DNA of 64,000 nucleotides from an uncultured Acidobacteriota bacterium (GTDB lineage: Bacteria; Acidobacteriota; Thermoanaerobaculia; UBA5066; DATFVB01), in contig CAWEYG010000002.1 in the NCBI GenBank assembly GCA_963813155.1, forward strand, positions 96,001 through 160,000. Direction: 5' to 3'. Below, piece after piece: positions 56,785 to 59,942 of this stretch. How positions within the stretch are numbered: the first letter of the stretch is position 1; the number at the start of each line of letters is the position of its first letter. The translations under genes and the position numbers were made by a program. Below the pieces are notes generated by a model. That model was not told the origin of the DNA and ran no database searches. It saw nothing but the letters and a program-made list of their open reading frames with translations.

Positions 56785-57741
56785 GTGCGCCTCGATCAGC
56801 TCGTCTCCAGCAGATTCTCCCTTTCCCGGCGGAAGGCGCGCGAATACGTGGAGACCGGCCGCGTCGATCTCGAGGGATCCCCGTGCCGCGAGCCGGGAAC
56901 CGACGTCGCCGAAGACGAGACCGTCCGCCTCGACGTGAACCGTCCGGCGCTCGGCCGGGTTCGTTCGAACCTTCGCGTTCTCCTCGAAGACGGCGACGTG
57001 CTGCTCGTCGAGAAGCCCGCGGGGCTGCTGTCCGTTCCGACCGAAGCGCAGGAGAGGGACACTCTCCTCGCCCGTGTCAACTCCTACCTCCAGTATCGGC
57101 ACGGGAAGAGGCCGTTCGTCGGGGTCGTCCACCGCCTCGACAAGGACACTTCCGGAGTGCTCGTCTTCACGCGGACTCGGGAGACGCTTCGGGAACTTCA
57201 GGAGCTGTTTCGGCGGCACCAGGTCGAGCGGGAATACGTCGCGATCGTCGAAGGGGAGGTGACCCAGGACTCCGGAACGATCGGCCTCGAGCTCGTGCGG
57301 GACCGCGGCGACCGGAGGCGCGGGACCGCGCGCCGCGGCGAGCCGGGAATACCCGCGGTCACGCATTTCCGCGTGATCGAGCGTCGCGCCGGCGCGACGC
57401 TCCTCTCGATTCGGCTCGAGACGGGACGCACCCACCAGATCCGCGTCCATCTCGCGGCTCTCGGCTTTCCGGTGCTCGGCGACGCCGTGTACCGGCCCCG
57501 GACGCTGCCGCCGCCGCGAATCGCCGCTTCGCGTCAGATGCTCCACGCGCGCACGCTCGGATTCCGCCACGACGGGCGTTCGATCCGGGCGGAGAGCCCG
57601 ATTCCGGAGGACTTCCGCAAGACCTGGGAAAAACTCGGCGCTCTTCGCGCCCGCCCTCCGGCGCCCCTCCCGCGCGCACGCCCGACTCCGAGCGCCGCGC
57701 CGCGACCCGGAAAATCGCCGTCAAAACGCCGGCCGGCGTGA
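56785..57741 (+). CDS. RluA/RluD family RNA pseudouridine synthase
   Basis: S4-like RLDQLV, KPAGLL, VHRLDKDTSG, TGRTHQIRVH, GDAVY, QMLHA. Confidence 0.93.
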   Translation: MRLDQLVSSRFSLSRRKAREYVETGRVDLEGSPCREPGTDVAEDETVRLDVNRPALGRVRSNLRVLLEDGDVLLVEKPAGLLSVPTEAQERDTLLARVNSYLQYRHGKRPFVGVVHRLDKDTSGVLVFTRTRETLRELQELFRRHQVEREYVAIVEGEVTQDSGTIGLELVRDRGDRRRGTARRGEPGIPAVTHFRVIERRAGATLLSIRLETGRTHQIRVHLAALGFPVLGDAVYRPRTLPPPRIAASRQMLHARTLGFRHDGRSIRAESPIPEDFRKTWEKLGALRARPPAPLPRARPTPSAAPRPGKSPSKRRPA

Positions 57742-57815
57742 GCGCGAGGCGCGTCATGTGCGCCGGCCCCGGCGAGACTCGATCCGGGTTACACTCGAGC
57801 GTTGAGGAGGAAGAC

Positions 57816-58256
57816 ATGAGCGAAACGATTCAGATGTCGTCGGCGGCGAAGAAACCCCGAGCTCGCGCGGCGGCGACCCGAAAACCCGCCCGGAAGCCGG
57901 TGGCGAAAAAGAAAACTCCCGCGGGAGCGGCTCTGCGCCAGGCCCGCGCTCTTCGAGCGATGCTTTCCGAAGTCTCCCGGAGCGCGAACCGCGCCGGCTC
58001 GAAAATCGCAACGATCTCCCAGCGGGGAGGCGCCGCGACGAAGAAGGCGATCGGGACCGCCGGCAAGGCCACTCGCCGCGCCGTGCAGAGCTCCGTTCGG
58101 GAATGGAAAAGACTCGATACGCCCCGGAAGATCGAATTCGTCGCGACGCTGCTCTCGGCCCTCGCGGCGGCGTCCGGAGCCGTCGTGCGGGAGCGCGGAC
58201 GGAAGAAGAGCCTATCGGGCCGCGCTGGCTCTCTGTTCCGGAAAGCGCTTCGTTAG
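57816..58256 (+). CDS. Small Lys/Arg/Ala-rich basic hypothetical protein
   Basis: GAGGAGG SD. KKPRARAAATRKPARKPVAKKK histone-H1-like stretch, hydrophobic C-terminal helix. Confidence 0.6.
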   Translation: MSETIQMSSAAKKPRARAAATRKPARKPVAKKKTPAGAALRQARALRAMLSEVSRSANRAGSKIATISQRGGAATKKAIGTAGKATRRAVQSSVREWKRLDTPRKIEFVATLLSALAAASGAVVRERGRKKSLSGRAGSLFRKALR

Positions 58257-58880
58257 CCAGGCCGACAGCTCCTCCGGGTGGAACCCGAAGGGACCGAGCT
58301 TGCCCTTGTACGCGACGCGCCCCCCCTCGTCGACAACGTAGATTCGCTCCGGCCAGCCGCCGTAGAGAAAGTCGGCGCGGTTGTCCATCGTGTCGGAAGC
58401 GAGGGGCAGCGTGTAGCGGAACCTTCCGATGAAATCGCGCGCGATCGCGAGGCGCTGATCGAGCGTGTGCGGCTGCGGGTAGCAGACGCTCTGTTCGTCG
58501 TTTTCGGGCATCTTCCACTCGTCGATCGGATGGGCCTCGCGGATGTAGACGGTGAGGAACTCGGCGCGTTCCCCGTACTTCTCGTAGATTTTCGCGATTC
58601 GCCCGACCGAGCGCCGGAACGGCGGTCAGGTGAAGCTGCCGAAGACGAGGACGAGAGGCTTTCTGCCGATGTGATCCGAGATGCGGGTCGTGCCCGACCC
58701 GTCCGGCAGCCGCAGAACGGCGTCGGGAGCGCGGTCCCCGACTTTCAGAGAGCCTTCCCGGCGCGTGTCGTAGCGCAGCATGCCGAGGATGTTCCTCGGC
58801 CCGATCTGCCAGGCCGCGAACGCCGTGAAGGCGACGATCCCGAGGCCGAGGACCGCGAGACCGCGCTTGACGAATTTCAT
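58212..58880 (-). CDS. Iodothyronine deiodinase-like selenoprotein (Sec at the in-frame TGA, 58626-58628)
   Basis: N-terminal TM, GDRAPD, PLVLVFGSFT-U-PPF, VYIREAHPIDEW, DTMDN...YGGWPERIYVV, YKGKLGPFGFHPEEL. Both halves are in the same frame across a single TGA. Confidence 0.92.
58600..58625 (-). promoter_or_regulatory. Candidate bacterial SECIS hairpin
   Basis: mRNA after UGA: CCGCCGUUCCGG-CGCUC-GGUC-GGGCG. 5-bp stem with a G-first apical loop 17 nt after the UGA. Confidence 0.55.
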
Positions 58881-58940
58881 CGCCGAAGATTGTAACCGCA
58901 GATCCGGGGCTTCGCTCCGCCGACGGCACACATCGAAGCC

Positions 58941-59007
58941 ACCCTCCAAATTCCCTCTCCCGGCGGGAGAGGGTGGCGGGCGACGCCCGCCGGGTGAGGG
59001 GGAGGGT
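58941..59007. repeat. REP-like nested palindromes
   Basis: ACCCTCC...CCCTCTCCCGGCGGGAGAGGG-T-GGCGGGCGACGCCCGCC-GGGTGAGGG-GGAGGGT. Confidence 0.6.
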
Positions 59008-59213
59008 CCCCACGCGGGTCTTCGGTGTCTCCTTCGAGGAGACGCAGCGCGCACCTCGGTGGCATCCATTTCGCGCGCTCCTCGGGCGGATTTTTTCGCG
59101 AGTGCACATCCCGTAGGTTCTGGCGGATACCGGCGAAAAAATCTACGCTCCTCTCGGGAGACACCTGTGACCCGCGTCAGGACCCGCGCCAGGAAATGCT
59201 TTAAGCTTTCGAG

Positions 59214-59942
59214 GTGAACCTCAAGTTCTTCGGCACGAAAGGGTATGTCGAGGAGCACTCTCCGACGCACTTCGGCCACTCGGCCTTCTCGGTCGCGACT
59301 CGCGGCTTTCGGCTGCTCTTCGATTTCGGCCAGAACCGGAAAGGCCTGCTCCGAGAGATCCGGCCCGATGCCATCTACGTCTCGCACGCCCATCCCGACC
59401 ACGCCTGGGGCCTCGAGGAAGGAACGGAGGCTCCGGTCTACGCCTCGGGCGCGACGCACGAGATCCTGAAGAATCTTCCGATCGCGCGCCGGATCGTCCT
59501 GAATCCCGGTGAACCGGCAAAAGCGGGACCGTTTCGCCTGACGGCGTTCCCGGTCGCTCACTCCGTTCGGTGTCCCTGCGCGGCCGTGCGGATCGGAGCG
59601 GGAAAGAAGGTCTTCGTCTATTCCGGCGACATCGTTTCTTTCGAGAAGCCGGAAAGCGCGCTCGCCGGGGCGGAGCTCTATGTCGGGGACGGATCGACCC
59701 TGCGGGGTTCGCTCGTGCGGCGCCACAAGAGCGGAGCGTTGATCGGCCACACGACCATTCGCGCGCAGTTGGGATGGCTTGCGAAGGCGGGAGTCGCGCG
59801 CGCGATCTTTTCGCATTTCGGGAAAGATCCGATCGAGATGGGGGACGAGCAGCTGAACAGCGAGCTCGCGGCGCTGGCGGCCGAGAAAGCGCCGGACTGC
59901 CGCGTCGAGGCCGCGACGGACGGCGCGGAATTCGAGATCTAG
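59214..59942 (+). CDS. MBL-fold metallo-hydrolase
   Basis: FFGTKG, LLFDFG, SHAHPDHAWG, VAHS, VYSGD, GHTT, FSHF. Confidence 0.88.
   Translation: MNLKFFGTKGYVEEHSPTHFGHSAFSVATRGFRLLFDFGQNRKGLLREIRPDAIYVSHAHPDHAWGLEEGTEAPVYASGATHEILKNLPIARRIVLNPGEPAKAGPFRLTAFPVAHSVRCPCAAVRIGAGKKVFVYSGDIVSFEKPESALAGAELYVGDGSTLRGSLVRRHKSGALIGHTTIRAQLGWLAKAGVARAIFSHFGKDPIEMGDEQLNSELAALAAEKAPDCRVEAATDGAEFEI

Follow-up and report, generated by a model that had tools for sequence, protein, structure and literature searches.

An in-frame UGA codon in a deiodinase-like selenoprotein gene of an uncultured Acidobacteriota bacterium

A short reading frame in the genome of an uncultured Acidobacteriota bacterium raises the question of whether the TGA at its end closes a gene or stands within one. 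The locus lies in a 64,000-nucleotide stretch of DNA (the window; contig CAWEYG010000002.1, positions 96,001 to 160,000). On the minus strand, an open reading frame starts with ATG at 58880-58878, runs through 84 sense codons to ...PLVLVFGSFT and reaches TGA at 58628-58626, after which the same frame reads PPFRRS...YIREAHPIDEW...DTMDNRADFLYGGWPERIYVV...YKGKLGPFGFHPEEL and ends with TAG at 58214-58212. Translated with TGA as U, 58880-58212 forms one continuous frame of 222 codons in which TGA occurs once, at codon 85, and gives 222 residues including U85; read on the plus strand, 58212-58880 holds no gene. An initial annotation, made from the letters alone and naming no strand, had proposed this continuation through the TGA to 222 residues, and on the minus strand the proposal is exact. 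The earliest in-frame start 3′ of the TGA is an ATG at 58511 (a 99-residue frame, 58212..58511), and because it falls beyond the conserved YIREAHP motif, the second half alone cannot yield an intact domain. The features discussed below are the following.

58212..58880, minus strand: complete coding sequence of a deiodinase-like selenoprotein, 222 codons plus TAG (translation with TGA as U, PF00837, matched over its full length in 28 further related genomes).
58626..58628, minus strand: UGA codon 85, almost certainly read as selenocysteine (Sec), catalytic residue of FGSFT-U-PPF (alignment to Dio3 and Dio2, orthologs, Cys homologs).
58599..58614, minus strand: bacterial SECIS-type hairpin (RNAalifold consensus, covariation, synonymous suppression).
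58803..58859, minus strand: N-terminal hydrophobic segment, residues 8-26, signal-anchor or transmembrane helix (Kyte-Doolittle, model).
58767..58802, minus strand: juxtamembrane motif GPRNxxGMLRYD, residues 27-38 (20 of 20 orthologs; modelled helix 28-37).
58245..58751, minus strand: catalytic domain of the deiodinase family with a thioredoxin fold, residues 44-212, containing the loop-D insertion from H117 to P137 (Pfam range, model).
58482..58484, minus strand: Cys133 in loop-D, the sole other cysteine and a candidate resolving residue (ortholog conservation).

The locus is a real, intact single gene, which gene finders split at its Sec codon, and it is a further member of a known bacterial family, which is not itself new. 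Taken jointly, the gene, the reading of UGA85 as Sec, membership of the deiodinase family and a generic selenolate redox cycle have a probability of roughly 0.9 in our estimate; this figure does not cover the substrate.

Membership of the deiodinase family, as claimed at the outset, is indicated by a sequence profile, by alignment to PDB entries and by a fold search, and the three agree. With the TGA translated as U, Pfam PF00837 (T4_deiodinase) matches with an E-value of 1.5e-38 (132.9 bits versus a cut-off of 27), residues 44-212 lying on positions 72-236 of the 237 in the profile. This match spans the TGA and is the only one of its kind in the genome, and none of 14 control genomes has one. 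Sequence comparison with the PDB returned mouse Dio3 (4tr3, E 1.1e-28) and mouse Dio2 (9h48, E 5.9e-26), and in both of them U85 aligns with the catalytic Sec-to-Cys position. Foldseek likewise ranks Dio2 (9h48, E 1.7e-16, TM-score 0.82 on the target) and Dio3 (4tr3, E 1.0e-15) at the top, seven orders of magnitude ahead of the peroxiredoxin (Prx), ResA and DsbE chains, the next match standing at 5e-9. Within NCBIfam the best match is NF038285 (deiodinase_rel, a hypothetical equivalog of 347 positions), with an E-value of 6.1e-57 over profile positions 177-337 and a score of 193.6 bits that misses the cut-off of 250. Positions 1-176 are left unmatched because just 43 residues, the anchor region, precede the catalytic domain here, where homologs of 373-384 residues (P0059, P0062 and P0066) have a long N-terminal part.

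Conservation of the TGA and the genome's own machinery both indicate that codon 85 almost certainly encodes selenocysteine. Full-length matches were found in 29 of the 61 genomes searched (the own genome included), each with one internal TGA, at 55-100% protein identity, and the parts before and after the TGA are both conserved in a single frame. All 20 ortholog loci inspected keep TGA at this catalytic position. Whether homologs carry Cys or TGA there had been set as a check, and both occur: 51 of 52 homolog loci in named genomes have TGC or TGT at the Sec column, and the nearest named Cys-form homologs are Acidobacteriota metagenome-assembled genomes. Among the 120 database homologs listed, 40 are longer than 160 residues, of which 30 have Cys at the column and seven have W. 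We suspect that this W is TGA read as Trp by the gene caller, since TGG stands at the column in none of the 52 named-genome loci. The remaining 80 are 160 residues or shorter, and 79 of them lack the active-site motif, which bears out the initial view that the gene is split by gene calling and extends it to the family. Contigs from four soil runs of four studies, one of which (X1) may be the source sample, cover 58626-58628 with no letter other than TGA listed, and thus neither TGC nor TGT. The runs listed as containing this stretch are soil metagenomes, with no RNA run among them. As for the Sec machinery, selA, selB, selC and selD are all found in the genome, with selD at 331.9 bits, selA at 456.5 bits, selB at 351.2 bits and tRNA-Sec at 71.3 bits, each above its curated cut-off. 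The selD is of the Sec type, with a TGA of its own, and ARAGORN detects a tRNA-SeC with anticodon TCA. In the order sample, selA is present in 60 of 61 genomes.

Directly downstream of the UGA, comparison of the orthologs reveals a hairpin of the bacterial SECIS type. RNAalifold recovers it unprompted from the 20 loci, with a consensus stem of six pairs. In the own copy, five pairs join 58613-58609 with 58604-58600, one of them U-G, around a GGUC loop at 58608-58605; the sixth pair (58614 with 58599) is present in most orthologs and is a G-A mismatch here. The hairpin starts 11-12 nt downstream of the UGA and places GGUC at nt 21-24 counted from the U of UGA, and in the genome's own Sec-type selD the apical loop occupies nt 20-24 after the UGA. 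Across the 20 loci, 95% of cells are paired versus 86.4% in shuffles, and the covariation score is 0.232 versus 0.093 in shuffles; none of 500 shuffles reaches either value, and sliding the structure lowers the score to 0-0.032, although this control overstates the support because the 20 sequences are related and not independent. Two pairs covary (GC:10/CG:6 and UA:9/UG:6/GC:3), and one of them links the third positions of two Arg codons, where the changes are synonymous. The codons at +5 to +7 are invariant (CGC in 20/20, TCG in 17/17, GTC in 20/20), and the synonymous entropy of the hairpin codons is 0.48 bits versus 1.20 elsewhere, a value that none of 10,000 random codon sets reached. Taken by itself, the hairpin has a folding energy of -6.6 kcal/mol. 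The 81-nt region around the UGA, folded as a single sequence, is no more stable than its shuffles (z 0.29), and the minimum-energy fold of 49 nt is a different, overlapping hairpin. As the GGUC hairpin is not the single-sequence minimum, the case for a SECIS element is a purely comparative one. A search of 58100-59000 against Rfam at E-values up to 10 gave three matches at chance level and no SECIS family.

The N-terminal membrane anchor that had been read from the sequence is present, and similar segments occur in 20 of 20 orthologs. Residues 8-26, 19 in all, have a mean Kyte-Doolittle value of 1.97, the orthologs falling at 2.0-2.9 (1.97-2.91 overall), and the structure model (pLDDT 93.5) has a helix over residues 2-26. 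The juxtamembrane motif that follows is carried by the Cys-form Acidobacteriota homologs as GGPRNVYGFLRY. In the catalytic domain, the model shows a helix at 86-102 directly after U85. The N-terminus ahead of the anchor is short and basic. The flanks of the anchor carry a charge of +1 to +3 after the helix versus 0 to +4 before it, a modest bias; together with the likeness to anchored periplasmic redoxins, it suggests that the catalytic domain probably lies outside the cytoplasmic membrane, although the positive charge on the far side of the helix counts against this.

The gene neighborhood is of little help in assigning a function. Within the window, the neighbors are a divergent MBL-fold hydrolase, a convergent RluB-type pseudouridine synthase and a LigD primase-polymerase, with no functional link to the deiodinase-like gene. 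All-against-all BLAST of flank ORFs of at least 90 residues, over flanks of about 1.5 kb, yielded no neighbor common to all 20 loci; many shadow ORFs arise from the high G+C content, which makes this screen coarse. The largest neighbor cluster covers eight loci, and its three scanned ORFs have no Pfam match. Other neighbors found locally include Nramp, an M16 peptidase, an IS200-like transposase, a response regulator and an AhpC/TSA-thioredoxin-like gene. In 57700-59300, the scan for sigma-70-like promoters returned none, and terminator-like sites were not above shuffles.

In bacteria, the complex of SelB, GTP and Sec-tRNA(Sec) binds the SECIS hairpin while the ribosome stands on the UGA. At the present locus, this complex would dock on the GGUC hairpin and insert Sec at UGA85, giving the 222-residue protein. 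The conserved network that the protein has in common with the deiodinases (S82, T84, U85, Y112, E115, H117 and W122) suggests what may follow: the U85 selenolate would attack an electrophilic substrate atom to form an Se-X intermediate, a thiol would resolve this intermediate, and the enzyme would then be re-reduced. For the resolving thiol, the candidate is C133 in loop-D (SVCYPQP), or else an external thiol. Apart from U85, C133 is the only cysteine, and it is kept in all 20 orthologs as (V/I)CY(P/A/S)QP, whereas a loop-D Cys occurs in only one of the 52 homolog copies from named genomes. It counts against recycling through C133 that the Cys-form relatives are nearly all without this residue.

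With no gene neighbor conserved, the choice among organohalide, peroxide and disulfide stays a matter of inference, and our ranking of substrates is a guess. Placed first, and held tentatively, is a halogen carried by an activated (phenolic) aromatic ring and removed by reductive dehalogenation by analogy with the animal deiodinases. A wider proposal can be built on this, by which the single-anchor U-P-P-F soil clade would be an extracytoplasmic reductive dehalogenase acting on natural halogenated phenolics in soil organic matter, ancestral to animal deiodinase chemistry and recycled through a C133 selenenylsulfide in loop-D; we consider it doubtful. A substrate outside the three kinds named is unlikely.

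Second in the ranking, and a possible reading, is that the Sec enzyme acts as a peroxiredoxin-like peroxidase, in which hydrogen peroxide or organic hydroperoxides would oxidize U85 to a selenenic acid, resolved by C133 or an external thiol, in antioxidant defense of the envelope. The fold neighbors that follow the Dio chains are indeed the 1-Cys peroxiredoxins LsfA, Bcp and AhpE, and a redox function is what the 2005 paper proposes in its account of the family (PMC1088965). Pfam also gives a weak AhpC-TSA match (PF00578, 27.2 bits versus a cut-off of 26), with Redoxin at 25.1 versus 26.6, but the deiodinase profile is far stronger at 132.9 bits. The peroxiredoxin signature, Pxxx(T/S)xxC, has Pro at -7 and Thr or Ser at -3 from the peroxidatic residue. 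Half of it is present here, with S82 at -3 from U85 but Leu78 at -7. The AhpC/TSA-thioredoxin-like gene lies directly downstream in one related genome (L024), but as one of 12 flank ORFs scanned it is not a conserved neighbor.

Quite unlikely, and less probable than any of these, is that the substrate is a protein or small-molecule disulfide, the protein being an anchored extracytoplasmic selenol-disulfide oxidoreductase of the ResA, TlpA or CcmG kind that is fed by a membrane reductase of the CcdA/DsbD type and reduces a protein partner. An anchor ahead of a thioredoxin fold is the architecture of ResA, TlpA and SdbA, ResA and DsbE account for many of the fold neighbors, and there are weak matches to NCBIfam ResA (E 4.4e-4) and to SdbA in the PDB (5um7, E 7.7e-7). 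However, the motif is U-P-P-F, with no second redox residue of the CxxC type, the sole remaining Cys lies 48 residues from U85 and is not family-wide, and no cytochrome-maturation or CcdA gene occurs among the neighboring ORFs scanned at this locus and in relatives.

Finally, it is most improbable that the TGA is a true stop or a sequencing error and the locus a pseudogene or a pair of small genes: public gene calls do treat the TGA as a stop (hence the 80 short entries among the 120 homologs listed), the single-sequence fold has no outstanding structure and a same-genus genome (G001, 78% complete) carries the gene in three shifted pieces, but TGA stands in 29 of 29 full-length matches with both halves in one frame, no start precedes YIREAHP in the downstream half, the hairpin covaries under suppressed synonymous change, the Sec machinery is complete, homologs have Cys at the column, and the contigs of the four runs hold no variant at the TGA.

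The reading preferred here, a Sec-containing member of the deiodinase family, is not a discovery of a family, which had already been catalogued. Its significance lies elsewhere. The gene is annotated as a truncated fragment without an active site, and database entries indicate the same for most relatives of the Sec type; this leads to an under-count of selenoproteins in soil Acidobacteriota, Planctomycetota and Verrucomicrobiota. Among bacterial proteins, the family is also the one most closely related to the thyroid-hormone deiodinases, and it has gone two decades without an assigned function. The present protein is a practical candidate for assay: it is compact and comes from a single-copy gene, its Sec site is clear and its SECIS defined, it has relatives of the Cys form, and its structure model is of high confidence. 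Such an assay could reveal whether selenium-dependent dehalogenation predates animals.

Compared with the vertebrate enzymes, the bacterial protein has 33-35% identity over the catalytic core and TM-scores of 0.80-0.82 on the target. Common to Dio1-3 and the bacterial protein are FGSxT-U-PPF, YIxEAHPxDxW and an N-terminal anchor ahead of the catalytic domain, and the loop-D insertion has the same length as that of Dio2. Counting the alignment against residue numbers that appear in the text of PMC11592359, Dio2 S127, T129, U130, Y157, E160, H162 and W167 correspond to S82, T84, U85, Y112, E115, H117 and W122, of which Y112, E115 and H117 are invariant across a 39-sequence alignment. From the conserved His to the position of His182 there are 20 residues in both Dio2 and the bacterial protein. 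This second relay His (Dio2 H182, at the far edge of loop-D) is replaced by Pro137, which is followed by H, R, K or T in the 20 orthologs. The thyronine carboxylate clamp (K241 in Dio2, R275 in Dio3) is Leu195 here and L, T, P or V in 20 orthologs, with a conserved Lys194 one residue before. In place of the proximal Cys of SCTU stands Phe83, as had been claimed from the sequence (12 of the 20 orthologs have Tyr), and Leu158 takes the position of the distal Cys, C205 in Dio2. C133 aligns with neither of these but with Glu178 of Dio2 and a Val of Dio3, a loop-D position for a Cys that no animal deiodinase is known to use. The gene thus differs from the animal enzymes in its candidate recycling Cys and its missing clamp residue. 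The absence of the relay His, the clamp residue and both recycling cysteines counts against a deiodinase-like substrate chemistry, and thyroid hormones are not expected as substrates. The Dio SECIS is an element of the 3′-UTR, whereas that of the bacterial gene is an in-frame hairpin.

Bacterial 'deiodinase-like protein' selenoproteins were first described in 2005 (Zhang, Fomenko and Gladyshev, PMC1088965), and the family is listed in two reviews (PMC9312934, PMC13188914), whose entries give its function as unknown and presumed redox. The initial annotation was therefore right that such proteins had been reported and, going by the family descriptions in PMC1088965 and PMC13188914, that their substrate is not established. 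With the family as described in 2005, the present protein has in common a bacterial PF00837 domain, Sec at the catalytic position, a SECIS right after the UGA and the existence of Cys homologs. The examples given in the catalogued descriptions come from marine metagenomes, whereas the present clade is one of soil bacteria. The family entries of the two reviews give the motif as UxxC and the corresponding part of the GOS paper gives none; the present protein has U-P-P-F like the animal deiodinases, and Cys at +3 is found in none of 38 homologs aligned with it. A single N-terminal anchor and the conserved GPRNxxGMLRYD also characterize the clade, which is set apart from the catalogue examples by description only.

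Among more distant systems, ResA, TlpA, SdbA and the 1-Cys peroxiredoxins LsfA and AhpE likewise join an N-terminal anchor to a thioredoxin or peroxiredoxin fold, and ResA-type reductases and 1-Cys peroxiredoxins are fold neighbors at E-values of 5e-9 to 2e-7 with 15-22% identity. Unlike ResA, TlpA, SdbA and the peroxiredoxins, the present protein has neither CxxC nor the peroxiredoxin Pro, and it carries the loop-D insertion that is specific to the deiodinase family.

The deiodinase-like gene is encoded on the minus strand at 58880-58212, where its translation matches exactly the split, membrane-anchored selenoprotein that the initial annotation had described without naming a strand. The plus-strand reading of 58212..58880 gives a charged low-complexity translation interrupted by a stop, and therefore no gene. 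The gene and its neighbors are laid out as follows.

Features of the deiodinase-like gene and its surroundings
59214-59942, plus strand: MBL-fold hydrolase gene, divergent from the deiodinase-like gene
58880, minus strand: start codon ATG, from translation
58628-58626, minus strand: in-frame TGA, codon 85, from translation
58614-58599, minus strand: SECIS-type hairpin, RNAalifold consensus (five pairs, -6.6 kcal/mol in this copy)
58214-58212, minus strand: stop codon TAG, from translation
Ending at 57741: pseudouridine synthase gene, convergent with the deiodinase-like gene
Beyond the pseudouridine synthase gene: LigD primase-polymerase gene

The TGA is preceded by 84 sense codons, the last of which encode PLVLVFGSFT, and the same frame continues through PPFRRS, YIREAHPIDEW, DTMDNRADFLYGGWPERIYVV and YKGKLGPFGFHPEEL to the TAG. 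With selenocysteine (U) at codon 85 this gives the predicted 222 residues, in which C133 is the only other cysteine. The earliest in-frame start 3′ of the TGA (ATG at 58511) is already past the YIREAHP motif, and that half can therefore not stand as an intact gene by itself. The original observation of one gene across the TGA is confirmed.

Translated with TGA as U, the protein gives one Pfam T4_deiodinase (PF00837) match, which spans the TGA (residues 44-212, E 1.5e-38) and scores 132.9 bits (cut-off 27); the AhpC-TSA and Redoxin profiles reach only 27.2 and 25.1 bits, and PF00837 matches nowhere else in the genome. The only solved structures whose sequences match strongly are those of mouse Dio3 (4tr3, E 1.1e-28) and Dio2 (9h48, E 5.9e-26), whose catalytic Sec-to-Cys residue pairs with U85. 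An AlphaFold2 model built from a 39-sequence alignment (mean pLDDT 93.5) again retrieves Dio2 and Dio3 first in Foldseek (E 1.7e-16, TM 0.82 on target, 33% identity; and E 1.0e-15, 35% identity), with subsequent matches beginning at 5e-9 and comprising a Sinorhizobium hypothetical protein, the 1-Cys Prx LsfA and DsbE-/ResA-type reductases. The top NCBIfam model, NF038285 ‘deiodinase_rel’, scores 193.6, below its cut-off of 250, and is covered only over positions 177-337 of 347, indicating a shorter architecture than that equivalog. The identification as a deiodinase-type gene was right.

Conservation of the TGA was interrogated by a six-frame search of 61 genomes (this one and 60 relatives of the same order). 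A full-length match with exactly one internal TGA was found in 29, the 28 non-self matches having 55-84% protein identity, and in all 20 extracted loci the TGA occupies the same column of FGS(F/Y)T-U-PPFRR(S/A)V; two of these 20 (L023 of genome G002 and L031 of G008) belong to genomes marked as unpublished and enter the conservation and SECIS claims only as two rows of 20. A genome of the same genus (G001, 78% complete) carries the ortholog in three frame-shifted pieces (G001:C14:488535-489199), the middle one retaining the TGA; assembly indels or a decaying copy could account for this. In the other 31 genomes the match was weak or absent. Most of these belong to family f2, where 26 of 27 gave no match and one a weak match; outside it, G003 (97% complete) and G006 (51%) gave none or only a weak one, G044 (97%) none and G048 (92%) a weak one only.

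Given the 60 nt surrounding the UGA in each of the 20 loci, RNAalifold yields one hairpin, a GGUC loop closed by six pairs. Paired cells amount to 95% versus 86.4% in shuffles (0/500 as high) and the covariation score is 0.232 versus 0.093, shuffle statistics that are inflated because the 20 sequences are kin; sliding the partner strand drops pairing to 27-67%. One covarying pair (GC:10/CG:6/other:4) connects synonymous third positions of two Arg codons, and a second (UA:9/UG:6/GC:3/UC:2) is tied to an S-V-G / S-V-E / A-V-A protein change. Codons +5 to +7 are nucleotide-invariant, and synonymous entropy in the hairpin codons is 0.48 bits versus 1.20 bits in comparable codons elsewhere in the gene (0/10000 random sets as low). 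Counted from the UGA, the stem starts at a distance of 11 nt in orthologs and 12 nt in this copy, and the loop is at nt 21-24. The E. coli fdhF element is closely similar, with a GGUC loop and, 11 nt past the UGA, a minimal upper hairpin. The genome's own selD serves as an internal control: the hairpin following its in-frame TGA has its loop at nt 20-24. The single-sequence fold at the UGA is not unusually stable (z 0.29), its minimum being a different, overlapping hairpin, and Rfam gave no match to a SECIS family in 58100-59000.

The genome encodes the Sec machinery that the initial annotation called for, with selD (331.9 bits), selA (456.5), selB (351.2) and tRNA-Sec (71.3 bits, anticodon TCA) all above cut-offs, and selA is present in 60/61 genomes of the order sample. 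The selD gene (921620-922561 of contig C3, minus strand) itself has an in-frame TGA (…AGSAG-U-ACKLG…) with a hairpin after it, marking a Sec-type selenophosphate synthetase. Among the database matches listed, 40/120 homologs exceed 160 aa, and their Sec column holds Cys in 30, ‘W’ in seven (including P0004, P0015, P0048, P0054, P0058 and P0060) and Ser in two, with no motif in one. Named MAGs of Acidobacteriota, Planctomycetota and Verrucomicrobiota supplied 52 loci, in which 52 motif-bearing copies read TGC or TGT and one further paralogous copy reads TGA. None of the 52 loci has TGG, so the Trp residues are probably TGA codons that a gene caller translated under a different code. One Planctomycetota contig (JAKBCS010000072.1) carries a Sec/Cys pair side by side, FGSFT-U-GPF and FGSFT-C-GRF, from TGA and TGC paralogs. 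Finally, contigs covering 58626-58628 in four soil metagenome runs, each from a different study, show no other letter there; one run may be the source sample, and contigs lose rare variants. Five independent lines (conservation, SECIS, machinery, Cys homologs and independent DNA) make it almost certain that TGA85 encodes selenocysteine.

The remaining 80/120 listed homologs are at most 160 aa long, and 79 of them lack the active-site motif; 11 inspected use alternative starts soon after the Sec column, e.g. at YIREAHP. The splitting noticed here is thus systematic, public calls truncating the Sec forms.

The expected N-terminal anchor is a single 19-residue hydrophobic window (mean KD 2.0-2.9), present in 20/20 orthologs behind a very short, basic N-terminus. 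A GPRNxxGMLRYD segment, also in 20/20, forms a second short helix in the AlphaFold2 model. The 10 residues ahead of the helix carry a net charge of 0 to +4 and the 15 behind it one of +1 to +3; this small bias, with the free N-terminus, favors N-in/C-out, so that the catalytic domain likely lies on the outer side of the membrane, like that of ResA or TlpA.

The gene stands alone, and no partner gene is common to the flanks of the 20 orthologous loci, which leaves context uninformative on substrate. In genome G004, of a related genus, an AhpC/TSA-thioredoxin-like gene directly follows the ortholog (L024:135-1208, minus strand), an arrangement not conserved elsewhere; this gene also gave a weak hit in the six-frame search. 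The 5′ intergenic region (58895-59060) has strong predicted structure (MFE -87.2 kcal/mol, z -2.18) with a perfect palindrome at 58953-58973; segments of 22-77 nt from it are repeated at 22 further genomic sites, soil contigs accumulate over it, and it looks like fragments of REP/REPIN-like hairpin repeats. On the plus strand, the tail (57750-58256) of a long ORF at 56883-58256 overlaps the last 45 nt of the deiodinase-like gene, and this putative small convergent gene has a basic stretch, one hydrophobic segment and no Pfam match.

Residues were compared with Dio2 on the alignment to 4tr3/9h48, using numbering from excerpts of the Dio2 structure paper (PMC11592359). Catalytic U130 (U85 here) and the active-site network S127, T129, Y157, E160, H162 and W167 (S82, T84, Y112, E115, H117 and W122) are conserved, and loop-D is of equal length. 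In contrast, the terminal relay His H182 is P137, the distal recycling Cys C205 is L158, and the carboxylate clamp (Dio2 K241, Dio3 R275) is L195 (L/T/P/V in orthologs), with a conserved Lys one residue before. Phe does replace the proximal recycling Cys, F83 standing at Dio3's Cys position (Ala in Dio2). C133 pairs with Dio2 E178 within loop-D and is kept in 20/20 orthologs, but 51/52 named-genome copies and 32/40 motif-bearing homologs among the matches listed have no Cys in the equivalent loop.

The data establish a Sec codon where a deiodinase fold has its catalytic residue, together with its recoding signal, the Sec machinery and an N-terminal anchor. SelB-dependent Sec insertion would supply a selenolate to attack an electrophilic atom, and the resulting Se-X intermediate would be resolved by a thiol, C133 or external, before the enzyme is re-reduced. 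Dehalogenation of an activated aryl halide, to which we assign a probability of roughly 0.35, is consistent with the mostly retained Dio-specific network, the retained loop-D and the soil habitat, while the loss of thyronine-specific residues speaks against it. Prx-like and ResA-like fold neighbors point to redox functions in general, among which a hydroperoxide substrate is almost as probable as the aryl halide and a disulfide the least probable of the candidates; some other substrate ranks just above the disulfide.

Bacterial Sec- and Cys-containing deiodinase-like proteins, with a bacterial SECIS, appear in excerpts of the Sargasso Sea study of Zhang, Fomenko and Gladyshev 2005 (PMC1088965), whose authors proposed a redox function. 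The family is also listed in the GOS analysis (PMC2398784), whose table gives no motif, and in excerpts of 2022 and 2026 reviews (PMC9312934, PMC13188914), which give UxxC, the latter describing functions of such proteins as largely unknown. The main use of the finding is annotation correction and a compact candidate for the family's first biochemical test. Compared with the catalogued UxxC family, by the description in those excerpts, position +3 is Phe here and in 38/38 aligned homologs. The protein belongs to this already catalogued bacterial deiodinase-like family, and what is new is this member.
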